A stretch of DNA of 55,997 bases, taken from positions 1 through 55,997 of the forward strand of contig JYFJ02002489.1 of the NCBI GenBank assembly GCA_000934665.2, given 5' to 3'. Shown one piece after another: positions 19,630 to 54,622 of this stretch (its first letter is position 1; each line of letters starts with the position of its first letter). This DNA comes from Catajapyx aquilonaris (taxonomy: Eukaryota). Below the pieces are notes generated by a model, which had not been told where the DNA came from, searched no databases, and worked only from the letters and a program-made list of their open reading frames with translations. The position numbers and the translations under genes were made by a program.

Positions 19630-20331
19630 TTATGCAGGGGTAAAAGCAGGTCCTGCCACCATGTCTTCCCCTCCAGCGTCACTATGGGCCAGGCAGAGTA
19701 TCGGCGCAATCAGACAGGTAGATCTCGACGGACAGCAGGCATCCAGCAGGGTGCAGCAGTTTCCCTGAAATGGAAAAGCCCAAGTACGTTGTCCTCGGCG
19801 ATTCTTCTGTCACAGTCCAAGGAAAATTATATCTTCAGTGTTGAAGTACACGTTTTACTTACACGTCTGTGAGGGCAGCAGTACGTGCCTCCCAGCAACT
19901 TTCCGCAGCATTTACCGAAGCACCTGCTTCTCCCACACCTTACACCACGCCATGGTCTGCCAGGTCTGCCACCACCCTCGCCACTGCCATCCTCGCCACT
20001 GCCACCACCACCACCTCCTTCTCCTTCTTCTCCTCCACCACCACCTCCTCCATGACCCCCTCCTCCATGACCTCCTCCTCCTTGGGGTCCTCCTCCTCCG
20101 CCCCCAAATCCACCACCTCCAGGTACAAACAACCCACCTCGTCTGTCTCGACCGACGTAATCACGGTCTAAGTCATCATCTTCCAGGGCGTCCTCTCCAG
20201 CACTAATACCCTTACAAAAAAAAAGACAATATCTCAATATTAATAAATCAGAGACTGTCGATGGGCTATGTCAGACTTACCAACAGGGTGACTACAAAAA
20301 CCAGGGCTACTAGAACCACCTTCCGCTCCAT
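19630..20331 (-). CDS. Gene A: secreted precursor, signal + acidic propeptide + RDRR + Gly-rich segment + one 12-Cys granulin module (177 aa)
   Basis: Exons 20281-20331 (MERKVVLVALVFVVTLL), 19863-20210 (GISA-GEDALEDDDLDRDYVGRDRR-GGLFVPGGGG...RCGRSRCFGKCCGKLLGGTYCCPHRR), 19630-19764 (GNCCTLLDACCPSRSTCLIAPILC...*). Cys pattern C-C-CC-CC-CC-CC-C-C. TATA on the minus strand at 20371-20378. Confidence 0.85.
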
Positions 20332-20564: not shown

Positions 20565-21040
20565 TTATCCCCTTTCATGAGGGATGTCACCCGCGTCGTC
20601 ATCTTCGTCATGCACCAGGGCTGCTGGAGTTCTGGGAGTGGCGCGACCCAGAGATATGCACTTTTTGGCGTCGCTGCCGCAAACTGTGCCTTTGGGGCAA
20701 CAGTAGTCGTGGCCAGGGCAGCAGTTACCCTTTATGAACAAACACATCGTAAATTATGCATATTAGTCAGGTTCCACTATATGACAAGCTGTAAAAATAC
20801 GATGGCTTTACAGATAGTTTTTCTGCAATGCCAATACTCACTTCTGGGAGAGGGCAACATGAATGCTCAAAACGTCCTTTACAGCATGTTGATTTGCACC
20901 ATTCACAGCATGGGCGGTCTACTGCTGATGCCTATAAATTGAGAATAGGTGTAAAGACATCTTATGTTAGTTACTGTTTCACTATTTAGACTTACCAGGA
21001 GGCTGAAGCAGAGTAAGGCAAGAAGAACGTACAGTTTCAT
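20565..21040 (-). CDS. Gene B: secreted single-granulin protein with acidic tail (99 aa, 13 Cys in the mature part)
   Basis: Exons 20996-21040 (MKLYVLLALLCFSLL), 20842-20931 (ASAVDRPCCEWCKSTCCKGRFEHSCCPLPE), 20565-20729 (GNCCPGHDYCCPKGTVCGSDAKKC...HDEDDDAGDIPHERG*). TATA at about 21087-21093. Confidence 0.88.
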
Positions 21041-22533: not shown

Positions 22534-22822
22534 TTAATCTGCTGAACTTTGGGTTTGGGAGTGTGAATGACACAAAAGTTTCAGGCTGCATATAAAGAGA
22601 ACTTTATTTGTCAAAGGGGTGAATGAATCGCTTTTGAAGCGGCATTGCGAAGGAGTTGATGTCCTCCTCTCTCTTTGACCCTCAGTTAAGCTCTGGAAAA
22701 CAATGTGAGAAAATGTCAAGATTATTGTGTCATACACATATATTCTGGGTGTCACTCATGGAAAGGCTTACAAGGGTAGTTAAGACCACAACCAGTATTG
22801 CCAAAGTAAGTTTAAGACTCAT
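22534..22822 (-). pseudogene. Gene C: degenerate or divergent paralogue of genes D/E/F
   Basis: Exon 22772-22822 (MSLKLTLAILVVVLTTL, gtaag donor) and an exon from 22692 (SLTEGQRERR...) match the D/E/F signal peptides. The rest lacks CC pairs, an acidic tail and a second GT donor. TATA at 22876-22882 and a variant promoter motif at 22902-22914. Confidence 0.6.
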
Positions 22823-24207
22823 TGTGCCTGTGATTCGCCACTCTTGCCACGCTGCCTTGACATGATGCACATCGGTTTTATACGCGTACATGCTGGCAGG
22901 CTAATTAGCGCGTGAAACGACTAATCATTATGAATGGGACGCATTCCTTTGTGCTCAAATATCAGTACCGGTAATTAGCACGAATTATAGCTTTAAACAT
23001 CATGCATAGACAGTAGCATTTTCGAAAATATCTAAGTCAGATATTGCGGTGTTTTGAAATGTGATGCTGATATAGAGTGATAATTGTAATGCTGAATTAC
23101 TGGCGCCAATGAGGTTCATTTTTATAGCTTATACTGTATACTGCAGAGTTGTCATTTGCGGAGCTCCCAAGCAAAAGCATCTAACTCCAAGTTTGTATGC
23201 ATATTAAGCCAGCTCCAATGTGATTAACTTTTCCATAATGTTAAATATGTAAAACTAAGTTTTTTCCTATCTATATGAAACATACACACATACAAGATTG
23301 GTGGAATCAGCATTTTAACACTCTCCATATTATTGTTAAAAAATCATTTATGTGGAAAAAAATGCTTTTTTTCAAGCAAAACCAGCTAACTCCAAATACA
23401 CATTACAGTACAACCAATGAGTAGTAGAAATAATTGTTCCTAGCAACAGGATGGGCTGGAATAATCATGTATCGTACACCCCTAACTTGTAAGATGTAAG
23501 GTCAGATTTCATTACCTCCAGAAAACTTTTCGGCTGGAAAAGGGACAGAAAAGTTTGTTAATACACTGGGTAACTAACTATTGATAAAATTAAAAACTAT
23601 TTTTTGGCTCTTTTCCAGCGGGCAACTTTTCATGTCAGTGGTCCTACTACTCTACTATATCATCATAGCTACTATCATAGCTTTAACGCGTGAGAAAGAT
23701 TTGAAAAAATAATAGAGACGAACAAGATTGATATTGGGGTAAGTCGAATCTAAGCTGATTAATTCTTTTAAAACTCTCCCATCTCATGTTGTCACCCTCC
23801 CCTAGAATATCACCTAAGCAAAGATGGGTCAAGAAAGGAAGAGAGTTAAAAGTGAGTGCAACACTGCAGGAGGGGAAGATGGGTTTTTGACAAGTTCTGC
23901 CGTTTTTCTTTTGTTCAGACATACTTTTATTTCTTTGATTTGTGCGATGGTATTAAAATACTTGTAGGATATTCTGCGCAGTAAAGTTCAGTGTAACAGT
24001 AGGCTACTCATTTGCATTCATTTGGTGGCGAGTATGGGACAATGTATGCATTTGATTTTTCTTATATTCTTAAAGGATTAGTGTGTGAAAGCAAATACGT
24101 AAAATGATATAATTGATGCTAGTATAGTACTTTATTTAATAAAGGCATAAATATATCGCTTTTGACATCGGTTTCAAATCATTAAGTCGCGAAGGGGAAT
24201 CTTCAGC

Positions 24208-24696
24208 TCAGCCGTGATGTCCATGTCCTCCACCACCGCGATGTTCGTCAGAAGTCGCGTCGGCCTTTGCGTCAGCAGCAGCGTCAGCAGAATCGGCGAT
24301 TACATCTCCGTCTTGGTAACTGATGTCGTCGGCGACGTCAAAGGCAGCTGAGGAGTCGGCGGAGGAGTCGGGGTTGTCACCAAAGATGCGCCAGCGGCAG
24401 CATCGTACCCTTCCTCCAATTCGGCAGCAGCGGAACTGGAAAAGTCCAAACGGCATTGGCCGTATTAGTTACATGCATAGTACATTGTATAAGACAGTAG
24501 TGCAAAAATTATGTGCGTGGTACTTACACCTCGAGGACAAAACCGGCAAAATCGTTGGGCTTCAGTTACGGTCTGGAATGCAAAAAAATAGTGAAGAATT
24601 ACAATTTCATTATGTATACTGTCATTGCAGCTCTATATGACTTACAAGGACAGCAAGGGCCACTAGCAGCAGTGCCAAAGTCAGTTTAGGACTCAT
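24208..24696 (-). CDS. Gene D: secreted Arg-rich 6-Cys peptide precursor with acidic C-terminal piece and His/Gly tail (107 aa)
   Basis: Exons 24646-24696 (MSPKLTLALLLVALAVL), 24528-24572 (TVTEA-QRFCRFCPRG), 24208-24435 (FRCCRIGGRVRCCRWRIFG-DNPDSSADSS...DE-HRGGGGHGHHG*). Canonical gtaagt/cag sites; TATA at 24765-24771. Confidence 0.88.
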
Positions 24697-28314: not shown

Positions 28315-28832
28315 TTATTCGGCTGCGGCTGCTGCTTCATCATGGTGGTGATGATGGTGTCCTCTGCGATGTCCTCCTCCACGACGTCCATCATCAGCGA
28401 CGGCTTCGTCAGATGCAGCAGCGGAATCGGCAGGTGCAGATTCGTCGAAGAAGTCGTCATCTACGGCGTCGGATGAATCAGCGGAGGAATCGCTTTCATC
28501 ATTACGGCCTGGGCGGCAGCAGCTAACTCGGCCCCGTCTGCGGCAGCAAACAAGCTGCAACATGAGACAAAAAGGAGCACATTAGTAAAGAATTTTGTTG
28601 GTTCTTCATACGGTACATGAATGCAGCACACTTACGGGACGACAGCATCGGCGTCCGCCACCACCACGACATGCCCGGCATCCCCTCTGAGCTTCAGTCA
28701 GGCTCTACAAACAATAAATTTTTAAAAATGCAAATTGATTGACATCACTATGACACGATGTAAATTTCACGTTATACTTACGACGACCACCAGGGCCACC
28801 ACCAACAGTGCCAAAGTGAGTTTGCAATTCAT
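28315..28832 (-). CDS. Gene E: secreted Arg-rich 8-Cys peptide precursor with acidic piece and poly-His tail (119 aa)
   Basis: Exons 28782-28832 (MNCKLTLALLVVALVVV), 28636-28704 (SLTEA-QRGCRACRGGGGRRCCRP), 28315-28554 (LVCCRRRGRVSCCRPGR-NDESDSSADSS...DDG-RRGGGHRRGHHHHHHDEAAAAAE*). TATA at 28890-28896. Confidence 0.88.
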
Positions 28833-29732
28833 GATGCTCGAGTTGTGTTAGTACTCTTGATACAGATCGATGTGAAGCAGTGCTGTTAGTTATATACCTG
28901 CTCCAGCCACATAATTAACACGTGAATAACTTTGGACATTAGCTGTGTGGCACGTCCTTCTATGCCTAAAAATCGAGCAATTAGCACGGGCAGTAGTAAT
29001 AGAGCACGCAATACTTAAGAGTTTTCCTTGTCTTTGCAGTATATGGTCAGTCCTGATGGCTTGGTCTGCAATTTTTTCCAAGGGTATATCAAAGCAAAAC
29101 TTAAATAAAATACATTGTCAACTTGTTATTTCTCACACCATGTTCTCGGTGCAAAAGTTGCATTTGAAAGTGTGTAAGTATTATAATAAACCTTTGAAAA
29201 CTACGGTACTGTACGTGCTTCATCTACGATGAATGACGGCCTAAAGTACGAGTACAACCTTTAAAAACCAGTCGCAAAATAAAACATCTGTAATTTAGTG
29301 ATAAAATGTTTTAAAAAATTGCAAGCTTTATGTTAAGCAGATTCAAATATGTAAATCAGCACAGTATTTAAAAATAATAGGCAAATCCAGTAATTATTAA
29401 TGAGTCCCTTTCATCAGGCTATTTCTTCTCCCTTTCCTCTCAATTTCATGACTTATCAATATCGGTGAGTTTCCAATAATTATAATCAGAATTCCGTAAG
29501 TAATGAACAATATTTATTATGATATATTTATTAATTTGTTGCTGCAGGGAGGATACACCCCATATGCATACAGTCCATAAAGTGATAAGCATTTCACTCT
29601 TTTTACTAAATGAAAATTAATTACATTATGGAAATGTTTATGTTGCTTACATGCACTAAACATGATTGCTATTGAATTGCTACATACTGAAAAGCAGCCA
29701 ATCTTGCAGTTCCATATTCAAATTTTTCTTTG

Positions 29733-30136
29733 CAGGGTGTTCCCAAATTCGTCTGCCACAATGATACGGGTGGTAAGGAGTGCATATGGAAGAAGCATGG
29801 CATGGGTCCGAAAGGCCGGCGACGACGTCGGCGTCGACGTCGACGATGTACTACATCCTGACAAGATAGTATGTATACCACCGTACATGCCTGCATTGGT
29901 GGTTCCTGGAGTCAGGCGGTTAAGCAATGGTCTGGGTGCGCGAGAGCCTAACCCCGGCAACCAGCAATGCAGGCATGTACGGCGGTATCCATACTTGTCA
30001 GGATGTACATCGTCGATGTCAAAGGTCGACATCTCCAAAACGGATCGTCGCGTCGCCTGCCTTTCGGACCCATGCCATGCTTCTTCCATAAGCACCCCCT
30101 ACCACCCTTTTGGCATACGAATTTGGGAACACCATG
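29733..30136. mobile_element. Tc1/mariner-type MITE with long imperfect TIRs (copy 1)
   Basis: Ends cagggtgttcccaaattcgt / acgaatttgggaacaccatg followed by TA; nearly the whole element folds back; a related copy starts at 46963. Confidence 0.8.
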
Positions 30137-30395
30137 TATATAGGGCGTCATCTAGCATCTATAAAAAAAAGACAATGACGCCGCATTGACCAAGACAGTC
30201 CAGGGGTGCGAAGGATGAGAAGGATCACAAACCTTCCATTTTCCAGAATAAAACAGGAACAGTTACAATTAATAGTTATTAATAATCATGTAAGTAACCG
30301 GATATTTATTATTTTATGTAGGTTCTGGAATATATTTGCCCCTATATTTATTACCTAATGACACCAGCACATTACTTGAGGTTGGCTCCAATATA

Positions 30396-31796: not shown

Positions 31797-32232
31797 TTAA
31801 TCAACTAAATCGTCGTGGTGTCCTCCGTGATGGTCTGAAGTATCGGCCGCAATTTCATCGGAACCGTCGTACTCATTGGCGTCAAAGACGACAGGACCAG
31901 AATCTGCAGAGTCGTTGCCATCCAATAAAAAGCCACGGCAGCAATAAAAATGTCCCCGAAGGATGCAGCACCGCGACTAAATAGAAGAGGAAATTATTAA
32001 AGTTGTACCACTTTGTACTGAATATAATTATTTTCGATGTATAGTAGCAAGAAAGAGTACACTTACGAAGAATGGGCAACGTATCGGGCAGCCAAAAGGA
32101 TGAGCTTCAGTCAGACTCTAAAAAAACAACATTAAATGAAGCCCATATCTTTGCACAAAAAAGGCTCCTTTTACCTACCAGGACCGTAAGTGCCACCAGC
32201 AGCACTCCCAAAGTCACTTTGAAATTCATCAT
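31797..32232 (-). CDS. Gene F: secreted 6-Cys cationic/hydrophobic peptide precursor with acidic piece and His tail (94 aa)
   Basis: Exons 32179-32232 (MMNFKVTLGVLLVALTVL), 32067-32117 (SLTEA-HPFGCPIRCPFF), 31797-31976 (SRCCILRGHFYCCRGFLL-DGNDSADSGPVVFDANEYDGSDEIAADTSDHHGGHHDDLVD*). TATA at 32296-32301. Confidence 0.87.
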
Positions 32233-32951: not shown

Positions 32952-33930
32952 TTACTGCATCTCTATGAGAGGAATTTTCTCAGGTAGAAATACGTTTCTG
33001 GATAGCAAATAACAACTCTGCTCGCGTAAATCGCAGAAGTAGTTGGCTGGGCAGCAGAACCGTCTGTCAGCGCAACACACAGCCTGTAAATAAGTTATTA
33101 TCGACTGATTAGTCACTCTCAATATAACATTTTAATAGTAGCCTGTCATACCCGAGTGGTCATGCCACCCATACAATTCACAAGGGACCTAAATCTGAGC
33201 TGAACTGAGCACCTGTTGCACCACCACGTATATTCGAAAAATTCGTGTCATTCTCACATGCACAGTGCGTTGTCGCAGGCCTTTGCACGTTAAAATAAAT
33301 TATATAGAAGTATCACTGACTACATCTTACGTTTGGCACGGGGCAGCATCCATTAGAATTGCTAACTTTAAGGCAGCAGGTTTCTTCAATACCGCAGGAA
33401 CTTCCGTCTTGGCAACGTCGGCCGGGTTGACGTTCTTGCCCAAACTAGTGACGTCAAGGATGTAAGTAAAGGGAAAAATAAATTAGAACTCATACTGTAC
33501 ATTATTAATTATTCACTGCCACAATGGGTCTCATAATAAAAGTTCTTTACATGTACAGGGTGGTGCTTTGCTCTGGTCCCCATTTCAAAGGAAGCACAGT
33601 GGATTGTTTATACCAGCAACAAGCTCAAGTCGCGGAGAAACAACAGGGACATAGGCTTTCATTAAACTTGTCTCTGATATAAGGAATCCAAGTGGGGGGT
33701 TGGGCAGGGCACAGTCCTGTACAGTGTATATCTTAAAAACTATATGTAATATATGACCTCGTATATGCCGGTTTTGGTCGTTTAATATTACAGGCACAGT
33801 GTATGGAATGCAGCTGGAATATATATTCGCAATATGTAATATAATGTATCTAAAAATATTCGAAACTTACTACCCCGTGAATGAAAAGCAGCAACATCAC
33901 GAATACGATCAATCCAGTTCTGTCAGCCAT
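32952..33930 (-). CDS. Gene G: secreted single-granulin protein (101 aa)
   Basis: Exons 33871-33930 (MADRTGLIVFVMLLLFIHGV), 33331-33444 (FGQERQPGRRCQDGSSCGIEETCCLKVSNSNGCCPVPN), 32952-33083 (AVCCADRRFCCPANYFCDLREQSCYLL...*); canonical 12-Cys granulin spacing. Confidence 0.9.
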
Positions 33931-34623: not shown

Positions 34624-35114
34624 ATGCATCTGTACTTGATTTTCTTGGGCGTCATTTTGACCATTTCCTGTCAAGTTGTAAGTTAACAAAAAAGTGCACA
34701 TATTACAACACAACTTGTAGGGTACTACTAAACTTCTTTTTTAAATTTAGCGAGCAGAAGTGAAATGTTCCGACGAATACACATGCGAGACCGGGGATAA
34801 ATGCTGCCCTCACAAGAAAGGTTTTGGTTGCTGTCCTCTTATTGACGTATGTGTCATATGCTGATTTTTTCACAAACAAATGACATTAACTGGAAATCTC
34901 ATTCACAATGTAGGGTATCTGTTGCAATGACGGTGTCCACTGCTGCCCTCAAGGAACAGAGTGTGACCTCACGGAACATCAATGTGTTAACAAAATTGCC
35001 CGTGGATTCAATCACGTTCCACTAACTTCATGCAAAGGCGCCTCCTGGATTGGAACCACACACCATCACGGTCACCACGGTCACCACGGTCACCACGGAT
35101 CCTGGCATCACTAA
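34624..35114 (+). CDS. Gene H: secreted single-granulin protein with His-rich tail (116 aa)
   Basis: Exons 34624-34677 (MHLYLIFLGVILTISCQV), 34751-34846 (RAEVKCSDEYTCETGDKCCPHKKGFGCCPLID), 34914-35114 (GICCNDGVHCCPQGTECDLTEHQC...HHHGHHGHHGHHGSWHH*). An upstream exon (ATG 34518, donor 34537, acceptor 34609) could add 11 aa in frame. Confidence 0.9.
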
Positions 35115-37124
35115 CTAATTTTTTACACTCATATTATAGTACTTCGTGCATCATGTAATAATATAGTATTATTATGTGACAAAAATGAAATAAACAAAAA
35201 CATATTGTTAACTGTACATATACACGAGTTGCTCATGTGTTCATTTAAAATTTTCCTTCAAGATGTTGATACTGTTGATGCAAGATGTATATTGAAGAGG
35301 TCAAGAGTCAAATAGACAAAATATGAACTCAATGCTAAAGCATCGCTTTTGACCGACTGAGAAGGTTTCGATGTCATTGGTATTAGCATAACCCCGGTTG
35401 TAGTGAGAAAAATTGAAAACTTACGGTTATTTTCAATACTGTACAGTACATTGAAAAATAATTTGCCATCACTACACTGTAGTTTGGTCTTGATCACATG
35501 GTTTTCAGAGTTTCCCAGAAATTTTACGTGATGAAGTTAAAAGCAATTTTTATTGTATAGCTGATCGTACTCGTACATGACTGTATACAGTACAGTAGGT
35601 ATAATTTGTAGTATCTTATAATTATAATATATTAGTCATAATCTGGTCATAATTCTCATAAATCATGGCTGTACACGCATCCTGGCACCTCCAAATAAAA
35701 CAACTAATAAAATAATTTACCTGCACATTGTGAGTGCAAAACATTTTGTATACAGTTCACTTGGCTTTGTTACAGTCTGTTACAGTACTACTGTATACGT
35801 AGAAATATTCCTGGCTTAGGCGAGATATCCTTTAATAAATTACTTGACATCTTAATTCAACGTTGCTTAATTTATTAGTTAATTTGTTATTTGGTCCCCG
35901 AAGCCTCTTTACTGGGATGATATTCTGCAACTACACAATGCATAAAATATCCTGCTGCAAGGTATGCGCCCCTCCGCACTTTAAAAGCTTTTACGGCATT
36001 TTATTAGCTAGCTACGTTCCCATAAAGTACGGTACCCTCTGACTAATGCTAATTATTAGCCATGAAGCTACGAAGACAAAAAATAATAAGGCAATATTAC
36101 AATAATTATGTTCCGTATCCTCTTCTCCGGAAGAAAGCATGATTATTGGTGTTAGATCTCCGAATGTATAGCGGATGATAAATGACAGACAGCTCTTCGA
36201 AGTATCTTGGTAATTTACAGTAGCTGTCAGATTTTGGTTGCGATTATATTACAATCAAGGATGAATAGATATCGATGATAGTGCAAATCTGAGAAGTGCA
36301 AATCATGCTGGAAACACCCAGTTCAATCGTGAAGTCTCACTGTTACGTAATTGGGTATAGGTGATAGGACACCTTCACAGGACCTCACCTTACATGACCC
36401 TGTTACACTCTATGCTGTATAGCAGAATATAGACATGATGACAGGTGAAGAAATATGAGCTTTCAGAGATTCTGGCATCAAAATGTTTTACAGAATGAGG
36501 CATTACGTTAACAAAATTACATTACTACTGTATTTACTGCTTGTCTAAATTATGGCAATGCAATGGGCGTCTGATTATGTTTATAAAGAGGCGACTTCTT
36601 CGAGGTCATTGCATGTCGCTCTCACATTATCACGTCATGATGACTATACAGTATACAATACGCTTCAAATATTATTAATGATTTTTCAAGTGCGTGGCAG
36701 TATACCCAGTTGACATACCAAATCAAACTGCTTGGTAAGAGGTAATCACAAGTGTCGTAATGGCAAGAAGAAAGAGACCTGCTATTGGAAGATGCTCAAA
36801 CAGAATAAACCCCAAACTATTGTGTGCTTTGATATTTTCCCATCTCAATGCACCACTATAGATATGTTACGGCCAGCGAGTATTGCACATTAATGCAATG
36901 TACTAATCTGGTACTAATACATTCACAACATTTCTTCATCCCATTAACACGTGGCCCGCATTTATATACGTGTGTTTGTCAACATGCTGCCAATATTGTT
37001 ACACGTGCTCATCGGCAAACTTATCTGCACATGCAATATAATGATGGGCAGCAATAATATGCGTGATGTATAAAAGAGACAAGAGTACAATGAGCACAAT
37101 GCGTCTCAAGGGTAGAGAAGCAAG

Positions 37125-37591
37125 ATGATCCGCCCATTTTTTCTCGTCCTTCTGCTGGCAGCTGTTTACTTGGTCGTGAGTATCTTCGTCAATCGGCAAT
37201 TACCGAACCATACATCAAAACATATTCTATTACGCAGACTGTAAATGGAAAGATACGTTGCTCGGCTAAGCACAGCTGTGACGTTGGTCAAACCTGTTGC
37301 AGACAACGTGGCAACCGATTTGGCTGCTGCCCTGTGCCAAACGTGAGCTGCAATTTGATTTCTTTTTATGTCACGCCATCTTAGAATGTTCTGCATGTCT
37401 ATATTAATGGTACGACAATTTAGGCCGTCTGCTGCGAAAATGGAGACCACTGCTGCCCCAGCGGACGATTTTGCGACATTGGGAGATGGGCCTGTCCGAG
37501 AATGAAGGCCGGAGGAAGAGCTGATGAAGATAGTAGGGGCGGCTTATTAGGCTTAGGCCTATTGAATTTGCTTGACGCAAATGAGGAATGA
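37125..37591 (+). CDS. Gene I: secreted single-granulin protein (107 aa)
   Basis: TATA at about 37069; exons 37125-37175 (MIRPFFLVLLLAAVYLV), 37238-37342 (TVNGKIRCSAKHSCDVGQTCCRQRGNRFGCCPVPN), 37424-37591 (AVCCENGDHCCPSGRFCDIGRWAC...DANEE*); AATAAA at about 37614. Confidence 0.9.
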
Positions 37592-38141: not shown

Positions 38142-38690
38142 ATGAGGTTCCTTTTTGTCCTGATGCTGCTTTTATCTGTTGTGGTAAGTGACGTTTATAT
38201 GGTTACGACATTTCCAAGTATTTTTCCTTATGCGTTTCATGCTAATGTTTTACGGGTCCCGGATGAGCTGCAATCTTAAAATAATGTATTAGGAAGATTG
38301 CTGCTGTGCACGAAAATATACGCTATCATTCAGGGTCGCATTGGTTGTGACTCATGTCACATACTCCTTACTGTACTTCCTTCTCCTCAGGCTATTGCCA
38401 TGAGCGCCAAGCGTTGTCCAGGATCCAACGTCCAATGTCCGAATAAGGAGACCTGCTGCAGGGGTGGATCAGGAGCCGTTTTCAAATGCTGCGGATTCAA
38501 CAATGTAACACACAATCGCTTCTCATACAAATGATGCGTTTTATTAATCCATGTATAATTTCTACAGGGCATTTGCTGTTCTGACAGACGCCACTGCTGC
38601 CCTCGTGGGCACAGGTGTGACATTGTCAACCGTCGATGTATCAAGGGTAGAAAGGGATCAGGGGAAATTGCTCAATGGAAGAGCTTCTAA
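38142..38690 (+). CDS. Gene J: secreted cationic single-granulin protein (92 aa)
   Basis: Exons 38142-38183 (MRFLFVLMLLLSVV), 38391-38504 (AIAMSAKRCPGSNVQCPNKETCCRGGSGAVFKCCGFNN), 38568-38690 (GICCSDRRHCCPRGHRCDIVNRRCIKGRKGSGEIAQWKSF*). Confidence 0.9.
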
Positions 38691-41839: not shown

Positions 41840-42187
41840 ATGAAGGCTGTGGTAAGTATTGCCTTGGTTTGTTTCTAGAAGTCACCAAGTTCCATTGATT
41901 AGGCTATTAACTTACGCTATTATTTCATATCTGTTTAGTTCGTAGCTCTTTTTGTACTGGCACTGGTGGCACTGGCTGTAGCCAACCCCCGCCGCGGTTA
42001 TGGCTATGGCCACGGCGGATATGGTCATGGTGGTTGGGGTCACGGTGGCTATGGTCATGGCGGATATGGCGGATATGGCCACGGGGGATATGGCGGATAT
42101 GGCCACGGGGGGTACGGCCATGGGTATGGTCATGGATACGGTGGACACGGCTATGGAGGGTATGGTCATGGACATCATTACGGTTAA
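41840..42187 (+). CDS. Gene L: secreted Gly/Tyr/His-rich peptide (86 aa)
   Basis: TATA at 41751; exons 41840-41851 (MKAV) and 41939-42187 (FVALFVLALVALAVA-NPRRGYGYGHGGYGHGGWGHGG...GHHYG*); probable 3'-UTR intron from 42192; AATAAA at 42438. Confidence 0.9.
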
Positions 42188-42745
42188 ACAGGTCAGTCTT
42201 TTGTATTTTATTTGGTATCGGCATTTCCTTTTACATTGGTGAGAAAGAATGCGTGATTAACAGAGTTATCCTTTTCATTCATTTCAGCAGGACAAGCTTC
42301 CAGGTCCCAGCCGGCGTCACTCGCCACCAGTCACAGTCCTTTCCGTCTGCCATTGCATCCGTCAACAAATTGTCTCCAAGTGTCGACAAAGCCCCACACA
42401 GATGTTTAAATTGTTATGTTGTTGAAGTACAAAAGTGAATAAACCAATTTTATTGACATGTGTCTTTGCTATATTTGTGACGTGTCTACAGTCTACATGT
42501 CTCTCATAAACGGTAAGAAATTATTGAATTATTATTGTAAGATGTCTCTTGGTGTTCTCAAGTGCATTTAGTCGCCTAAACTCTTTGTTTTTATTTTTAA
42601 AAAGGACACTGTACTTTACCTTTCATTTTTATTCTGATATTATTGGTAAATTGACATTAAATCAGGCACAAGCTGAACATGCATTAATGCATAATAAGTG
42701 AGTAGTCCAAGACTGATTTAACATAAGGTCTGTGATAGCTATTTT

Positions 42746-45197
42746 TCACTTCAAAAATGGGTATCGGTTGTGCTTCTGACTAAATGCTCTTCTTAGCTTC
42801 GGCCATGATCGATTAATTTTATTAAGAAGCATTTCAAAAAGAAAACCAATGACACTGAGTGTCCATCCGTAAAAGACGAGCAAAAAAGGTCCATTCATTT
42901 TGTCCAGCCCGTGAGCCTTGGGGCCTTTTCCCTGTTGGTCACCTTTGTGCATGTTGGTTTCCCCATTCTTAGCTTTTCGAAGTCCGATCATGCGATTGAC
43001 CCTGACATTGTATTTTGACCAGCGAAGGTAAACCCCGGCTCCCATCATGCTCAAAATGGCCTTGTCAAAAGCTGAAGCATACACTGCATCCCGACGTACA
43101 GCCAGGGATGCCTCGAATCCAAAAGCCTTCTCGGATGACAGATGCGTCATCTCCTCTCCCTAAATTCATGCAAAAGAAATGACCATTTTATTTTTACAAA
43201 ATAATGGCATGGGCTAACATCAGCAAGGGCTAGTTTTTCTTTAAGATGACTGTCTCCACTTTGCATATGAATGAACATGCACGTGAGTGCACGAGATCCC
43301 TTAACTTAGTGTTTCATCAATAGGATAAGAAGTGTTTTTTTCCCTTACGTGCGTGTTGACTTGCACTGCCTTTAAGCTGCGCAGTAATTCTACGCTTGAA
43401 AGGCAAGCCCATTTAGGATCATCAGTAGCCAAAATGCAATCTTGTAATGAGTCCTTTCCCTAAAGGAACAAAACCGTAAAATTATTATCAGTGGGTACCC
43501 CCGAAATTATGTGAGTGACGTCCAATAATAATATGTGGAATGCTCAATTAAATTAATATAAACCATCATCATGCATTTTTATCACGTTGGGTTATACCTG
43601 GATATTATTACGTATCATGGCGACGTCAGGGTCATCCTTTTGATTCTCAGAAAGAATCATAAATAATACGATTTGGGCCGTGGCTCCTCCATAGGCATAG
43701 TCGGAATGCACAAGTTCCGATATGGTGTCTGGAATCTTCTCCTTGGGTGGAAAGGTCAGGTAGTAGAATAGTTGGGTCTTGTAAAGAGTGGCCATGACTA
43801 TAGCAAATAACCACCAGGTGCCTAGAAAGATCTTGTTGTCAATCTTGCTAGCCAGACTGCCCACATCTTGTTCTATTAGGCTCAAGACCACAAAGTTAAA
43901 TCCAGAAAGTGCGCTTTTAGGTTTCAAGAGGGCTAATCCTATTAGTAGACCCGACGCAGACGCTGACAATGAAAGCATGAACCATATGTGTATCGGAAAT
44001 GGCAGAATTAGGATCTTCCAGGTGTAGTTGGGCTTGGCTTTGGCCAGAATGAAGCTGACATAGTCCTGGTAGAAAACCTGCAACATTATACGGCAATAGA
44101 AATTATCATAAAATACTGGTCAGTGCACTATCCTGCACGTTACATGCATATAATGTTAATGCAAGTCGTACCGGATACATATGTGCTTGTCGCACCATGC
44201 TGTGGGTAAGCAATTGAAACGGGCAGAAATCAACTTTTCTGGTCATGACTGCTTTAACCATGGCTCCAACATCTGTGTCATCATTAAAGGCGCTGATCAA
44301 ATCGCCCCGACCATACGGAGACTCTTCAAGTTTCCATTTATAATGGAAAACGTCGCCCAGAAGTACAAGCATGGGCATGAAAAAGGGGGACGGCTCCATC
44401 AGTTCATTACGATCCAGCCTCCGCAAATGCGTCTCATTGTACACAGCAGGAAACATTCCTGCAATCAATTTACCATTTACATGGTGGACCATGCTTATAT
44501 TGAACAAGAGCTGCTTACCTTTCAGGTGTTTGCCGTGAAATCCACGAAATAGCTCTGGGTACGGATTTCCACTCAGTTGAAGGCGATGTGTTTCATTATA
44601 TTCGCCCATCAAGAGAAGGTCGTCTCTCCCATTGTCGCAAAAGAAGCATAAAGCCCACAGCTTAGACAGATCTTCCTCGACCACCAACTTGTACTTAATT
44701 TCTCCAACGATGTATGTGCTCAGCAGATCCTTCACATCTCCCTCCCTAGACCACATCAGAAAGTAGTCGAATGTTCTTCGCACATTCAACTCTGCTTCTG
44801 CTTTCATCAGAAGAGTCACAACGCCAACAGGATTCTTTCCGATAATGACGTAGAGGACTCTCTGGCCGGACAGAGCTTCACTGGTATAGTCGTATGAGAT
44901 CATAGTTTGATTGGAAATGTCCAGATCTTCCAGTTCAGGAGGCCTGCCGTTCTCGGGGACAGAAAACTCATGTAGAATGTACAACGGCTGCTTATTGGGA
45001 CTTGATGTAAGCACGGTGGAGATATGGGAAGGAATCTCGGTTGGATAATCATGGATCAGAGCTACAGTACAATCAGTTAAAGTGGATCGGATAATTTCTT
45101 CCAATATGTCGCCAAACTTTTCATCAGAGCACCTTGATGTGAAAGAATTTAAACTTATAATCATTAGAGTAACTGTCGCTAGAGCCTTGGTCCACAT
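42746..45197 (-). CDS. Divergent ionotropic receptor (variant iGluR/IR), copy 1 (about 656 aa)
   Basis: Exons 44519-45197, 44172-44458, 43598-44077, 43349-43459, 42746-43159. Signal peptide; CFFC...YPELFRGFHGKHLK; ILPFPIHIW (TM1); FLGTWWLFAIVMATLYKTQL..LTFP..IPDTISELV (TM2); FDKAILSMMGAGVY; GLDKMNGPFLLVFYG (TM3). Confidence 0.85.
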
Positions 45198-45333
45198 GGT
45201 TACTCACTCAATGAGAGAATTATTCCGAAACATACTTTTGTAGCCTACTACACGTTTGGGTTTGCACTTTTTCAGAGTGCACCTGCTAGGGTTATCAGGC
45301 CGTTTGGGATAAGTAATGCATGTAAGACACATA

Positions 45334-46962: not shown

Positions 46963-47356
46963 CAGGGTGTTCTCGAATTCGTCTGCCAAAATGATGTGGG
47001 TGGTAGGGGGAGGGTATGGAAGAATCATGGCATGGGCCCTAAAGGCCGACGACGACATTGACGTCGACAATGTCTATCCTGACAATTATGGGTACCTCCA
47101 TGCATGGTTGCATTGCTGGTTGCCGGGATCAGGCACTCCCACTACCAAGCCATTTCTCAACCGCCTGATTCTGGCAACCAGCAAAGCAGGAATGCACGGG
47201 GGTATCCATAATTGTCAGGATAGACATAGTCGATGTCAAAGGTCGACATCTCCAAAAACATATCGTCACCGGCCTGTCGGGCCCATGCCATCCTTTACCA
47301 TACGCACCTCCCTACCACACATATCATTTTGGCAGACGAATTCGGGAACGCTCTTC
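46963..47356. mobile_element. Tc1/mariner-type MITE (copy 2, same family as 29733-30136)
   Basis: TA-cagggtgttctcgaattcgtctgccaaaatgat... / ...atcattttggcagacgaattcgggaac; shares tcgatgtcaaaggtcgacatctccaaaa with copy 1; right tip degenerate. Confidence 0.8.
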
Positions 47357-47463
47357 TATGACGTCAGTTTTCAAATAAAATTACCGGAAATCTCTGATTT
47401 ATACGTCAAACGAAGATATTAAGAATTTAACATTTTCTTTAAAATATTAAGTCAATGTACATG

Positions 47464-48057: not shown

Positions 48058-50326
48058 TCATGGTAAATATCCGTACACAAACATTATTTCATTCGGTGCA
48101 CATCTCTTCCTACACGAAGTTATGCAGTTTAAGAAAATTTCCGTCAGAAAAATTGTAGAAGCTAGTAATAGACCAAACATGAGCAGCAAAAAAGGTCCCA
48201 TTAGTTCATCAAAATTATACGGATGAGGTCCGGTGCCGAAGTCGTAATTCTTTTCGTGTGCCATAATTCGACCTTTAAGTAAATTGACTCGCTCGTTGTA
48301 CTTTCTCCAATACTGCATGAACCCAGTATCAAATATTCTCAAAACTGCCGAATCAAACGTAGGTGTATATATCATGTCTTGTCTGATAACCATTCCACAC
48401 ATGAACTGATATTCTCTTCCTGGAGCTATCTGTGTCAGAAGATTCCCCTGAAATGGTAACAAATTAGCCCTCGGTTATGTGGCATTACAAAAAAAAATTA
48501 TTACCTCTCGATCCATTAGTTGATTATGTAGAGTTTCGAGTATCATGGAAGCTGACAGGCAAGCAAAATTCTTTGTTTTCAGCGTTTCTTGTATACATCC
48601 GTCAAGAGTGGGTATAATCTGTTGAAAGAAAAAAAAGTAATATAATAATTCGGGTTTCGGCAGGGTAACACTGTTGTTTGATTCGTACCTTCACCCCTTT
48701 GGACAGTTTCTGAATAATGGGATCATCTTGAAGATCTTGGGTAAGAATGAAGAAGAAAACTGCATGCGATTGGAAAGCTCCGTAAATGTAATCCGAGTCT
48801 ACCAGCTCTGGGATAGTGTTAGGAACAGTCCTCAGTGACGGGAATGTCAAGCACGTGAATAGCCTGGTCTTGTAACTGCAAGTCATAATAATGGCGAAGA
48901 CCCACCACATGAACATAAACACTTTGCCTCTGCGTATCTCCGGCTTAAAGGTCATCTGTTCCGCCAGGCTGAAAGCAAGAAAACTGAAAGAGCGTCCCAT
49001 CAGCGTCCAGAAGCTGCGATTTTTACGGTGGAGGTCAGTGGGCAGGATGATGAGGCCAAGGGTCACACAGCCACAGAACAACACAAATAATATGGACATC
49101 CAGAGATGGGCCGCGAAGGGACGTAATAAACGGTCCCAACGGTAAAACGGAGCGGGCTTGAGTAGAAGGAAGGCCCCTTGGTCTATGTAGTAAACAGGGC
49201 AAACGTGAGCGGCTCGGACCATGGAAGAAGTTAATAGCTGGGTTGGAACAAGGTCAATGTCTCCTAAAATTGCTGACTGGACCATAACCCCCACTGAGTT
49301 TTCGTTCACCAAGGCGGTCACCATGTCTGCTCCTCCTCCTGGAGATGGGTATATCTCCCAGTCGAAGTCGTACACGTCGCCCAGGAGGACCATCAGGCCC
49401 AGAAAGAAAGGAGCTGTTTCCAAGTGTAGCCTGCTGGCGTACAGGTTCCGGAGGTATGACTCGTTGAATCCTTGTGGGTACATGGCCTGTAACAGTGACA
49501 TAACGAAATCGTTAGTTTCTGTTCAATACACATCCACGTGCATCGCTGCACAGTATATACCAGTGAGTGCCTCACATGGGATGCAATATATTTCTCTCGC
49601 AGGTCTGGCAACATGAAACTTCACAATGCGTGTCACACGTACCTTCAGAAATTTTCCATGGAATCCTTGGAACATCTCTGGAAACGAATTTTTGAGCGTC
49701 TGTGGCTTTTCCACCGAGAAGAGGTCGACAATTTCTGGTCTGTCACGACCACTGTCGCAGTAGAAACATACCGACCAGAGTTGGTTGAGTAATCCAACAC
49801 CGTGCACTTCCTTTCCCAGAACCAACTTGTATTTGAGCCGAGCCATAACCTTTGCGCTCAAGAGGAGGTCCAACTGCCCCGACCGGCTCCATATAAAAAA
49901 GTAGTCATATGTGCGCCTTACGAAAATATACTCCATTGTGTACTGAATGGCACTTATCACTCTTAAAGGGTCTTGGCCGAGAATCATGTACAAGACTCTA
50001 CTTCCTGGAAGAGGCAGGACCTGTCGCCTGGTGTCGTTGGCAGAGTCAATCTCCTCGAAAGTAGTGTCACTCTCGCTCAATTTGGGAGGCCTCACCACTG
50101 TTGTTGGGGTGACACTTCTGTTGCTCAATAGTTCTTGTAGCGTTAGAGGAAGCACCAAATCGTAGTCGTGGACAAGAACCAAAGCAACTCCTCTCTTGTG
50201 ATGTTCCAGAATGATATTTGCTAAAGTGGAGGCAACGTGACCTTCCATAAACGGCGATTGAAGGATCCTGCTTAAACCACAAGTTATTGTAAAACTCCAC
50301 ATTACAAATGCGCCTGTAAATCTCAT
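48058..50326 (-). CDS. Divergent ionotropic receptor (variant iGluR/IR), copy 2 (about 661 aa)
   Basis: Exons 49643-50326, 48689-49486, 48505-48618, 48058-48447. CFYCDSGRD...FPEMFQGFHGKFLK; LRPFAAHLW; FMFMWWVFAIIMTCSYKTRL..LTFP..VPNTIPELV; FDSAVLRIFDTGFM; NFDELMGPFLLLMFG; collinear with copy 1. Confidence 0.85.
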
Positions 50327-53060
50327 GGTTCACTTCACTGTTCACTCTTGAATTAGCATTGTCACACTGCTGATATGGTAGCATACTATGGTGTACATAT
50401 TGGAAGTGTTAAATCCATACCTGCATGCTGCTATCAGACTAGACAATCGTTTCCCTGGAAGCACTTACCGTTGGGCAAATGATTGCTGTGTTCTACGCAG
50501 AAATAAGTTATGACGTGGGATACAAATAAGACTTATTAACCGTGGTTTGAAGATTCGTTGATAAGGTATAATTATGTATCAAACTACTCTACGTTCGCAC
50601 CTGCTTAGATTAATATCAATCAGTATTGCTCTACGTAAGGGAACAGATGACGTGGTCTCCTTATCTCTGAAAGCCTGAATGTATTTCGGGGTTCATAAGT
50701 TATGAGGCACTATACTAGTGCCTACACTGTGGTCGTAGTGTAGGGTGCTGACATCATGAAGGGCACAAATCGTGCAATCAATATTTTCACAGCTTTGAAA
50801 GGTGCCGTGACAGTGTTATAACATTTTATCACGATGTATTACTGGGACAAAAGCGACATTGTTTTCTGACAGTACAATAATTTTACAATTAACATTATTA
50901 ATATTTTGAGTTTCATTTATTGAAAATATCACGAAACAACCACAATATAGAGGCGATAATAATAATTTAGTCGTATTAATAATAAAACCTACGAAAGAAT
51001 ACTTTACAATATTTAAACATTCAACATCAGAAAAGATTGTCTAAAATTGGCGTCATGAAACAGTATTAACAGTGTTTGTGCAGCAATAATTTTTCAAAAT
51101 AATAATTTTGGCAATTAATTGTCCTCTGACACATAAGTTACATGCGGGTGTATTAATCTTACATTGTGATCAAAATATGGCTGGAAGACTTTACCTTTGC
51201 ACATCCAACAGCCTCAATCAAATAATGAATTGTGGGATTTGAAATTATTACGCTACTGGGGTTAAGGCTACTATAGTCGTGTATACATACTAACTCACGA
51301 ATTTGCGTGTGCAACTGTGCATAATTGGATAACACTTGGGACATGCCATGCAGGTTTTGTCGTACCCACAGGAAGCGATTTTTTAAATAGGATTTTTAAA
51401 AGCCGTAGGCTCATCTGAAATTCTGGATGTGTCGCGTATTGCCAGAACCCAGAAGCACTAACCTATCGAAATATACTGCTTAAATAATATCCTGGAAGTT
51501 TCTGGGAACTATTGATTTAGATGTGGCTTCAGAGCAGACTCATAAATCACACATCTTGGAATTTCCCGACACAAAAAGCTCACTGAGAAAACTGCTACGT
51601 CACCTGTCTGTTTAAAGCATCATCCATATAGGCATGTTACCAGTTTTTTTTACTGCGGGTTTCATTCAGAAGGTGACACAAGTAACCTTGGGTAACTTCC
51701 GAGAGGCTAATGTCCTGTGGTTCCAACTACGCGCTAAAGACTTATTCCATATTTCCGTTTTTGTCAGTCACACTAATTGGCCCACTCAAAGCCCTTCAAG
51801 GACCGACTCTTTTGTTAACTTCACTTCAATAGTGCACAAAAAATTAAGTTATAAGGCACTTTTAACTCTAAACGTGTGTCAGAAAGACTTGCAGTTACGT
51901 GAGTGAATACAGAACAATAAATCCACCTTCTGACCTCTTTGTTGGTGTTTCAAGGTCAAGGAATGATGCCCGGAGAATCGTACGTGCAATTTACCCTCGA
52001 CATATTTCAGGGATGCCTTGACCTCTTACGTACTTCTTACATAAACAGACACCTGGAAGATCCACTGGGGAACTTGTATACGTGCTCTTCAACATGTGTA
52101 CACGAATATCAGCAAAAACTGATTATGCAGGAATTAGTACCAACGTTACATTTATGTAAGTGTGCGATTAACGATAAATTATCGTCTATACGTCTGACTG
52201 TAGGGCCGTAAGAAATATGATAAAAATGATAACAAATCGCTTGTTAGAATGTGCATGTAGCCTACGTTGTTCCATTATTCATATAACAGCTTGCACACTG
52301 TGGGAATTCATCAAATGACCTTACAATAAAATAGATAAATGTGCATTTAATGCGAAACGTAATGGGTCAGTTCATTAAACAATACATTGCAATCAAAATG
52401 TTTGCTGCACTACTGCGTCACAAAATAAATTATTTATAATCTGATTCTAATTGGATCTCATTTAGGAAGTTTTTGAGAATGCTGGGTTTAGCCAAACTTC
52501 ACTTGGTTTTTAAAAATTCACCTCAGAGTATACTTAGAATAAGAGATATTACCGGTAACATTATGGTTTCAAGCTAGGTAACTATTGTGAGATTCTTCCG
52601 GCTACAGAGAAATAATGCTTCGTTTTTAATGAGCTCCTAATATATTTCACTTATGCAAATATGAAAATTCAGTCACTGAGGATGTGTTTTTTTACCACCA
52701 CTTATCACACAGTAATACTGGAGGAAAAACCTTTATTGATTTATTAATATTATTGGTGCAATATGTTTTTTTTTGTCTGTGAGATGAAACGCAAGATATT
52801 TGGATGGCTGTGAAATCCCCACCAAATTTCCCAGGCATTAGTGTGGTCTTTGAAGCACATCTCCGAGTCATGGTGCGTAAGACTTTTTCTATGGAGGTGC
52901 GATTGAAATTGACGGGGGAAGTGAAAGCAAACCAAGGCCAAGGATAAGACGGCGCGCAACGTAGGCGGCATGCTTCCTATATAAACAGGAGATTTCTTAG
53001 AGACTACTCAATTACCAGCTCGTTATCTCTTGGGGCCGATTCCTGCTTGAATTGTTCAAC

Positions 53061-54622
53061 ATGAAGGTTTGGGTGAGTACACAGCTGTTCATAGTTTTCG
53101 TTGATTTAAGTAAGGTTATATGATAATTAAAAGTAGACATCAGTACCCTATATTTCATTTCAACTAACTTGTAATTTAGTAATGGTACAATATATTGCTA
53201 GGCACGGAACTAGAATCTCATAATAAAACTCAGTGTGTAAGTTAGTGTTTGTAGCTAACCAGACTGCATTGCAATCGCTGAATAATTATTCATGAATATA
53301 CAGATATGTAAGATTGTAACAGCCAAGTGGTCAGCCGCTTTGCCTGATGCATCTTCCTTGCACCATCCACTCAGTAGGCCTACTCTTCCTTGTCCAGTTA
53401 GTCGATGTCGAACAGTGACAGTATAGGTTTTTCGTATATGACGGTCGCATTCTTGAGTGGAAAGCATTTAATGCGTTTCACTCAAGAATTTTCTTCTGAT
53501 CAGTAACTTTAATATATTGCTGAAGAGTGCATACGTATATGCTAATGTCAAGGTTGGGATGTGGCGGGATGGTGTAATAGGTAAAAATTAATCATGATTC
53601 ATGAGCCTTGTCCAGAAAATCTTTCTGAATGAAAATAGTGCAATTTCACCATGTGGGCTACAGTATGAGGCTACTATCTTGGGCTACTATAGCTCTTCGT
53701 CGCCTTGATGGAAAAGTGTCGTAGATAACTAGAACCCACCACCCATATACTCAGTGAATTACCTCGTCCTGAGGAGCGACTTACATACATACATAATATA
53801 CATACATTACATTCAAAATCACGGCATTTTCCCAAGATGGGGTTACCAGCGATGACCTGTGGACTGTGGAGGTGTAGCAACACCCAGTCATTAGCCTGTT
53901 CGTTCAGTACGCGAAACGTAGATATTCATAATCCATCCACCTTCAGACTGTGCACTCTCTAGTATGACTATGTTTACAGCACATGGTCTACTACTTGTAG
54001 AACACTGAAGAGCCTACTGCATATACGGCGCGGCGATGAGCTGCCCAAGTTCCCGTTCAAGGGAAGAATATATTATGCGATTACTGTTCATATAATTATA
54101 CACAAGCGTGTATAATAGCAAAACAACAATCCCAACAAGTGAAGTGGTAGCCTATTGGGTATTGATTCCAATGGATTATTCCATTTTAAAGTTGTTGATG
54201 GGATAAAGTGCTCAACAATCCTTAACTTCTTCCTTTGGTTTCAGAGCTTGGGCAGTGCACTACCGAAAATAATATGTTATTATCATGTCTGACAATACTA
54301 TAGCTATTACTGTATTATGTTAGTAGGCATAATAATAGGTCTAATAATGATGTTCAAATCATTTAAGTATAAAGTATTGTCATATTTGTCTTTGCAGCTG
54401 ATAGTGTGCATGGTTCTCCTGGTGGCCGCTCTGGCCTACGCCCAACACGGCGGATATGGCGGATATGGCGGACACCGAGGAGGATACGGTGGGTACGGCG
54501 GCGGCGGTCACCGTGGCGGCGGGTACGGCCACAGGGGAGGCGGAGGGTACGGCGGTTATGGTGGCCGAGGACATGGGGGCGGTGGCTGGGGAGGCGGCGG
54601 CCACCGAGGACATTACGGATAA
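53061..54622 (+). CDS. Gene M: secreted Gly/Tyr/His/Arg-rich peptide (78 aa), paralogue of gene L
   Basis: TATA at 52978; exons 53061-53072 (MKVW, gtgagt donor) and 54398-54622 (LIVCMVLLVAALAYA-QHGGYGGYGGHRGG...GGHRGHYG*). Confidence 0.88.

Follow-up and report, generated by a model that had tools for sequence, protein, structure and literature searches.

Gene E of Catajapyx aquilonaris and its relatives C, D, F and the unlinked K make up one young subfamily of genes, of which D, E, F and K encode peptides with arrays of paired cysteines. The family probably descends from granulin, a reading to which we give, from comparison of the sequences, a probability of about 0.8, and its arrays would form a series of 12, 10 (K), 8 (E) and 6 (D and F) Cys, i.e. 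6-5-4-3 predicted disulfides, with the introns fixed. That such an origin goes together with a role in host defence we regard, on the same footing, as somewhat better than an even chance. The evidence comes from one genome and is taken at the level of its DNA sequence: the window, by which we mean the whole stretch of 55,997 nucleotides analyzed, is contig C1185, and the genome searched comprises 285.6 Mb.

Ten three-exon genes (A, B and D to K) were modelled from splice signals alone (Table 1). All of their introns (20/20) are GT-AG and of phase 0, and in 10/10 genes a phase-0 intron lies two codons 5' of the first CC pair of exon 3, which bears out the proposal of a preliminary description of this DNA that the intron positions had stayed fixed. 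With a slash for this intron, the Cys pattern of E reads C-x2-C-x7-CC-x2 / x2-CC-x7-CC (8 Cys), that of D C-x2-C-x3 / x2-CC-x7-CC and that of F C-x3-C-x3 / x2-CC-x7-CC (6 Cys each), and that of K C-x3-C-x3-CC-x4 / x2-CC-x7-CC-x5-C-x4-C (10 Cys). Granulins A, B, G, H, I and J, the six that lie in the window, follow C-x4..6-C-x3..5-CC-x7..9-CC-x4 / x2-CC-x5-CC-x5-C-x6-C, with CC-x2-C at the start of B; their exon 2 thus carries C,C,CC,CC (one Cys more in B) and their exon 3 CC,CC,C,C. Granulins B and G flank genes C, D, E and F, all of them on one strand, and D, E and F each end in an acidic tail with terminal His. A MITE-like fold-back element of about 400 nt with nested inverted arms is present in two copies (29733-30140 and 46963-47361, 84-87% alike), the first of which falls between E and F.

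Table 1. Genes and gene parts referred to in the text; positions are those of the window unless another contig is named, and core and tail figures are net charges.
Feature	Position	Strand	Description
Gene E	28315..28832	-	three exons (28832-28782, 28704-28636, 28554-28315); GT-AG, phase-0 introns; core +12, tail -14
E exon 1	28782..28832	-	17 codons, hydrophobic, predicted signal peptide; phase-0 GT donor
E exon 2	28636..28704	-	end of signal, then C-x2-C-x7-CC-x2; placed from splice sites
E exon 3	28315..28554	-	x2-CC-x7-CC (predicted hairpin), then acidic tail and His-rich end
E promoter	28890..28924	-	CACGYGYTAA box at -92, TATA at -64; common to C, D, F and K
Gene C	22534..22822	-	family promoter box, signal exon and exon-2 start; without CC array
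Gene D	24208..24696	-	exons 24696-24646, 24572-24528, 24435-24208; 6 Cys; core +9, tail -12
Gene F	31797..32232	-	exons 32232-32179, 32117-32067, 31976-31797; 6 Cys; core +4, tail -13
Gene K	G000:C2473:7567-8183 (= L002:1510-2126)	+	outside the window; placed from splice signals; core +11, tail -12
Granulin A	19630..20331	-	Gly-rich extension and 12-Cys module; short first loops C-x4-C-x3-CC
Granulin B	20565..21040	-	13 Cys; short first loops C-x2-C-x3-CC; mildly acidic tail
Granulin G	32952..33930	-	single module, 12 Cys
Granulin H	34624..35114	+	single module with a 13th Cys; His-rich tail; PF00396 E 1e-7
Granulin I	37125..37591	+	single module, 12 Cys
Granulin J	38142..38690	+	single cationic module (+10); exon 3 is the best match to K exon 3

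The splice models agree with the preliminary description on the Cys counts of exon 2 (C,C,CC,CC in granulin, C,C,CC in E and C,C in D and F) and on the final two single Cys of granulin being missing from exon 3 of D, E and F. Its statement that this exon keeps CC-x7-CC is right as to the presence of the motif; the granulin exon-3 loop is x5 in 19/20 modules of the same genome and x6 in the remaining one, so the x7 of D, E and F was not kept from granulin exon 3. An x7 loop is found in exon 2 of 7/20 of these modules, and both x7 and the final x4 spacing of K occur in 0/20 granulin C-halves. From the exon-2 CC to the intron the spacing is CC-x2 in E versus CC-x4 in K and the granulins, where the exon-2 end of 9/20 modules was set at CC+4 by script (a GT-starting codon comes next in 8/9); 5 of the 20 collected modules lack an intron at the junction of the N- and C-halves.

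The kinship of the five family genes is seen most clearly at their 5' ends. Exon 1, to which in E a signal role was assigned by eye from its hydrophobicity, is mutually alike in D, E and F at z 9-12 against shuffles; E exon 1 shares 63-78% of its nucleotides with exon 1 of C, D, F and K (z 7-11), and the likeness runs from z 7 to 12 among C, D, E and F and from z 5 to 12 across all five genes. Furthermore, a CACGYGYTAA box lies 92-102 nt 5' of the start codon in 5/5 family genes, against a background of 3 matches in 90,319 nt of unrelated loci. Because of the exon-1 likeness and the common box, we take D, E and F to be real genes and not chance readings. The comparison of exons at the nucleotide level that had been suggested for the cluster links D, E and F to each other, but the family exon 1 is not common to the granulins, whose own first exons likewise lack mutual likeness (z no higher than 3.8), and in the same orientation the box is found in 0/12 granulin genes checked. 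Of the 12, granulin I alone has a box in reverse orientation, 181 nt upstream (36944-36953); a further copy, at 23692, belongs to no assigned gene. Among the tails, the match of D to E is the strongest (z about 8), and K matches E at z 3.3-3.6 (p 0.002-0.006).

K itself, which has the family promoter box, signal exon, exon-2 start and acidic tail, was recovered as a fifth paralogue on contig C2473 when the DNA of E was used to query the genome. The signal-exon pattern retrieved the five family genes and one chance match, and the exon-2-start pattern the identical five genes and three chance matches. Protein queries of the genome returned only the query genes themselves, and a loose CC-x7-CC pattern was uninformative (278 matches versus 167 for the control, 100 examined). 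Since the genome search is insensitive, the family has at least five genes. Gene C may be a degenerate or repurposed paralogue. In another frame, C reads on after a GA-rich run into an acidic stretch, then Lys-Arg and a peptide of 7 residues whose stop codon overlaps an AATAAA; the gene is possibly frameshifted, or repurposed to encode a Cys-free peptide.

There are 22 PF00396 matches on 11 contigs of this genome, from which 20 modules were collected, mostly single-module secreted genes; contigs C14123 and C12323 resemble allelic copies of H and of C1373, respectively. As some insects have no granulin at all according to PMC4527844, we read this count as a large expansion for an arthropod-type genome. 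Loop lengths drift in plain granulins too: the first loops of A and B are short, and in the 12-Cys granulin of contig C3524 (L036:1801-2087) hairpin 2 has shrunk to CC-x3-CC. A granulin gene on C1576 (L031:775-321, minus strand) shows a GC-starting codon and no GT at the usual end of exon 2, i.e. either a GC donor or a damaged splice site. In granulin A (20331-19630, minus strand) the module comes after an acidic segment resembling a propeptide, a dibasic site and a long stretch rich in Gly and His, which gives it the appearance of a glycine-rich defence peptide fused to granulin. The odd 13th Cys of B and H could form a dimer bond, and the tail of H ends with 12 His. The window also contains ELP6, kinesin and ligand-gated-channel exons, the last in tandem genes at 42749-45203 and 48061-50329 (minus strand; ionotropic-receptor-like, with a PF00060 match for one exon), as well as small genes for secreted-looking Gly/Tyr/His-rich repeat peptides at about 41840-42190 and at 54380-54620 (both plus strand). 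The Atlas clusters closest to ELP6 come mostly from arthropods.

The relation of the family to granulin was assessed by tests in which the Cys were held fixed and the other residues shuffled. Scored against a profile of the 20 granulin C-halves of the same genome, K exon 3 reaches 27.6 bits as compared to 11.0+-4.3 in shuffles, a value attained by 4/2000 of them (about 0.03 after 16 tests). In pairwise comparison with 13 granulin exon 3s, a test in which 12/13 granulins pass at p<0.01 as controls, its best partner is J (family-wise p 0.008; mean p 0.043); 13/23 residues are identical in the two, a likeness that may be inflated because both are Arg-rich. K exon 2 does not differ significantly from shuffles against the granulin profile (932/2000). 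Beyond its Cys, E carries no granulin signal in these tests (pair test p 0.81, full profile p 0.36, C-half profile 720/2000 shuffles). D and F are borderline against the full granulin profile (p 0.054 and 0.035), and their family-wise p in the exon-3 pair test is 0.91 and 0.052, respectively. The null of these 16 profile tests has a weakness: D exon 2 came out at 3/2000 on a score of no more than 5 bits, most of its shuffles having received no score at all.

Database comparisons of the family exons gave no matches. Exon 3 of D, E, F and K, scanned exon by exon, had no match to the Pfam granulin family PF00396 (for D, E and K at E<=1), and K exon 3 had none among PDB sequences at E<=10. J exon 3 retrieved four granulin chains from the PDB (E 1.5e-6). 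That exon (38568-38687, plus strand) also matches the 27-residue centipede peptide RhTx over the last hairpin (E 0.0027), which may be another derivative of a granulin C-terminus or a chance likeness; no paper naming both RhTx and granulin was found among the matches listed.

The PF00396 motif consists of 12 Cys (C,C,CC,CC,CC,CC,C,C), and the 10 of K, 8 of E and 6 of D and F fall short of it. The granulin intron register (four residues past one CC, two before the next) is exact in K, which carries the junction CC-x4 / x2-CC together with CC-x5-C; D, E and F have the phase-0 intron and the x2 on its 3' side, with x2-x3 on the 5' side. The link to granulin is thus made in two steps, the first from granulin to K, with moderate statistics, exact spacings and the intron in its favour, and the second from K to D, E and F, which is strong; E alone would not prove it. 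The granulin ancestry that had been proposed for E gains its support through K, with its 10 Cys and its granulin likeness outside the Cys, whereas the non-Cys residues of E itself do no better than shuffles.

The family could instead consist of Arg- and Cys-rich β-hairpin defence peptides of independent origin that converged on CC pairs. The missing Pfam and PDB granulin matches of the family exons are what one would expect in that case, as is a promoter and signal exon not common to granulins; K, which alone of the members gives a clear signal, lies on a contig without granulin neighbours (30,000 of 31,842 nt), the position of C to F among granulins could reflect chance or co-regulation, and mini-granulin-like folds are described as arising in unrelated conotoxins (PMC11035057). 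However, this explanation leaves too much to coincidence: the phase and position of the intron, the x4/x2 junction and CC-x5-C of K, the results of K against shuffles and its match to a published granulin variant (see below), and the placement of C to F in the interval from granulin B to granulin G, all on one strand. We consider it unlikely.

Granulin ancestry could also apply in another register, in which CC-x7-CC is granulin hairpin 2 and D and F are free paragranulins (N-halves) with a moved or new intron. Indeed, C,C,CC-x7-CC is the N-half pattern, the loop of D equals the exon-2 loop of granulin C1576b in 4/7 residues (p 0.005, from 420 permutations, uncorrected), and F fits the N-half profile (p 0.007). 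On the other hand, an intron would have to have been gained exactly two codons before CC, where granulin exon 3 already begins. The x7 hairpin of K, moreover, precedes a C-half ending and fits the C-half profile (4/2000 shuffles) but not the N-half profile (231/2000), and the loops of E, F and K do not match hairpin 2 (p 0.15-0.43). We hold this register to be improbable, and below we place CC-x7-CC in the third hairpin.

Each of the two middle granulin hairpins carries two CC pairs. The fold as a whole is described as four stacked hairpins with bonds 1-3, 2-5, 4-7, 6-9, 8-11 and 10-12 (PMC7463432, PMC4527844). Single-sequence AlphaFold2 places strands at residues 2-6 and 9-13 in the first 30 residues of E exon 3, and two hairpins, the second at residues 17-26, in K exon 3 (32 residues); these models cover exon-3 fragments of E and K only (pLDDT 76-77). 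For peptides of this kind, AlphaFold is not a reliable guide to disulfide connectivity (PMC11035057). The model of E agrees with CC-x7-CC forming one hairpin. Fold searches with the 32-residue K model gave no match, in a search run without a positive control. In the exon-3 alignment, the additional x5-C-x4-C of K forms one block of about 10 codons between aligned flanks that is missing from D, E and F.

On this basis, the steps may be reconstructed as follows. The starting point would be a single-module, three-exon granulin gene from which Cys were lost inside fixed exons. One exon-2 CC pair would have gone in K (C,C,CC / CC,CC,C,C), the last hairpin in addition in E, through the loss of some 10 codons from exon 3, and the remaining exon-2 CC in D and F, with the array lost altogether in C. 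As a middle hairpin comprises two CC pairs, the steps from granulin to K and from E to D and F would each drop half a rung; K to E would drop a whole hairpin, and D and F would end up a net two whole rungs short of granulin. The notion that whole rungs were deleted thus fits the middle step and not the two others, and the proposed series of 6-, 4- and 3-disulfide versions has to be replaced by 6-5-4-3, K adding the 5. The predicted ladders are 1-3, 2-5, 4-7, 6-9 and 8-10 for K, 1-3, 2-5, 4-7 and 6-8 for E, and 1-3, 2-5 and 4-6 for D and F, as in paragranulin, in which the closing cross-strand bond of such ladders is seen (PMC7463432). The array predicted for K corresponds to the third of three options hypothesized in PMC4527844 for a lamprey module; a possible alternative for K is 1-5, 2-3, 4-7, 6-9 and 8-10.

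The order of descent is less clear than the order of counts. Quartet tests of D, E, F and K rejected no topology (15 versus 13 versus 13 informative sites); they used gap-free columns, by which long tail segments common to D and E were dropped. The joined data (bp-RELL 0.66) and exon 3 (0.57) rank the grouping (D,F / E,K) first, and exon 1 prefers another tree. A nucleotide source of the exon-2 CC segment of E was sought in E, D and K and not found (p 0.92, 0.53 and 0.40), which leaves an internal duplication as its origin without nucleotide support, and introns 1 and 2 of D, E, F and K hold no convincing Cys remnants. With the quartet undecided, the tail segments common to D and E, and a CC segment without a traceable source, E is an intermediate in Cys count, and the earlier view of it as an intermediate between granulin and the 6-Cys peptides is tentative as far as descent is concerned. 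As its tail is closest to that of D, two separate losses or a mosaic gene fit as well as nested loss.

A strict ladder from granulin through K and E to D and F, with nested losses and E as a retained intermediate, would be compatible with granulin origin and needs the fewest Cys changes; its topology has the best likelihood on the joined data and exon 3, and E and K have the most similar first exons (78%). The near-even site counts, the dissenting exon 1 and the omission of the D-E tail segments from the quartet weigh against it, as does the spacing round the exon-2 CC (x7 and x2 in E versus x3 and x4 in K), and we regard it as a tentative possibility. Equally tentative is a history with D and E as sisters, in which E kept its exon-2 CC while D and F lost theirs separately, or regained it by insertion or recombination, the latter joining a K-like 5' half to a D-like exon 3. 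The strongest tail match, the C-x2-C at equal distance from the end of the signal and the similar exon-3 loops all speak for such a history, as does the closeness of E exon 1 to that of K; yet the quartet does not favour (D,E), and neither E, D nor K offers a nucleotide source for the CC segment.

The reductions proposed here can be compared with granulin variants already described. In relation to PF00396, the family resembles granulin in its array of CC pairs, the intron register (exact in K, on the 3' side in D, E and F), the fit of K exon 3 to the C-half and its genuine granulin neighbours, but differs in its number of Cys (10, 8 or 6 instead of 12), in an exon-3 loop of x7 and short loops at the start, in its strongly cationic character and long anionic tail, and in the lack of a Pfam match for its exons. 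The S2 Text of PMC4527844 lists a lamprey and tapeworm module that lacks the first double Cys (C C del CC / CC CC C C), which equals K in pattern and intron register; one tapeworm module also has C-x3-C-x3-CC. The variant is part of multi-module progranulins, however, and K stands alone with an anionic tail; we assume that the two arose independently. The same text gives an elephant shark module (C C CC CC / CC CC) that, like E, D and F, has lost the last two single Cys, and a sea-anemone module (C C CC CC / CC, 8 Cys) with the linear pattern of E in another intron register (C C CC / CC CC in E); unlike E, both retain the whole N-half. Each single reduction in the series therefore has a precedent in progranulins (PMC4527844), and the patterns of E and of D and F (C C / CC CC) are absent from the S2 Text table of that source. 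Paragranulin and engineered mini-granulins coincide with D and F, and not with E and K, in linear C,C,CC,CC and six Cys (PMC7463432, PMC11035057), but paragranulin, which PMC4527844 lists as well, is one N-half exon with loops of x5-6, whereas in D and F two exons contribute, one each for hairpins 1 and 3, and the loops are x2-3.

The most conspicuous feature of the family beyond its Cys is the distribution of charge. With the core delimited by hand as the Cys array plus 3 residues on its N-terminal and 4 on its C-terminal side, the cores are cationic and the tails strongly anionic (Table 1), compared with -4 to +2 for granulin tails. The tail about cancels the charge of the core in D, E and K; the charges of F do not balance. 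The family precursors thus present a layout of signal (judged by eye), cationic Cys core and anionic extension. Tachyplesin and gomesin precursors also have an anionic C-terminal extension. In E and K a Gly-Arg lies just 5' of the acidic tail, possibly as a candidate site of cleavage and amidation. By analogy, the products are probably host-defence peptides: the peptide would be secreted and held inert by its C-terminal anionic piece, and cleavage would set free a stack of hairpins, rich in Arg and stapled by disulfides, to act on the surfaces of microbes. The closest parallel in working is provided by the mytilins, with signal, cationic Cys-rich core, clustered genes and an anionic extension of opposite charge that is proposed to neutralize the core until release (PMC7168163); they have a CS-alpha-beta array of single Cys, and the likeness is not one of membership. 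Anionic propeptides, clustered genes and Gly-dependent amidation are described as general for invertebrate defence peptides (PMC10608444), and the horse granulin eNAP-1 has weak antibacterial activity (PMC3179947).

A granulin-derived peptide need not be antimicrobial. Growth and wound-factor roles are known for granulins, truncated ones included (PMC7463432), and the weakness of eNAP-1 as an antimicrobial (PMC3179947) could point the same way, so that signalling or wound repair, protease inhibition, a gland or venom function, or a metal-binding matrix via the His/acidic tail come into consideration. There are 4-7 His in each tail of D, E and F, and within 200 nt upstream of the five genes there is a single kappaB-like site (in K). 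Set against this are a layout in which 27-45 residues carry a core charge of +9 to +12 and the anionic tail stands apart, as in defence-peptide precursors, and loops that vary fast between paralogues. A function outside defence thus seems the less likely alternative to the host-defence role.

Searches for relatives in other organisms, which are weak for short divergent peptides, found none from E exon 3 (8 candidates) and none from the exon-3 alignment, neither among longer proteins (8000 candidates) nor among those of similar length (827 candidates). The sole match of a profile search in 1.84 billion representatives, P0001, has three repeats with a single CC each and was set aside as chance. 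K exon 3 reached a best value of only 0.77 in the ESM Atlas, and three proteins of the window or loci were absent from an exact-match protein collection. Among the papers listed by literature searches, which cover largely open-access work, none dealt with an arthropod family of antimicrobial peptides derived from granulin.

The K, E, D and F peptides are natural paralogues of 27-45 residues with 5, 4, 3 and 3 predicted disulfides, and are open to synthesis and disulfide mapping; for K-type peptides, such mapping would test the three arrays hypothesized in PMC4527844 for modules missing a double Cys. Mini-granulins serve as models of folding and as leads for wound healing, for the most part in the form of engineered truncations; whether the small granulin fold is ancestral or derived is a question that PMC7463432 discusses without a natural series. 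A bolder and rather doubtful proposal is that one genome keeps the full natural disassembly of the granulin ladder, from 6 through 5 and 4 to 3 disulfides and a Cys-free end, with the introns unmoved, the 3-disulfide end being a mini-granulin of hairpin 1 and hairpin 3 and not of the N-half, and that the shrinking went alongside recruitment into a new antimicrobial family. If this is true, other orphan CC-rich defence peptides and toxins of invertebrates may be unrecognized granulin descendants, and if the peptides kill microbes, they would constitute a new defence-peptide family with a traceable origin.
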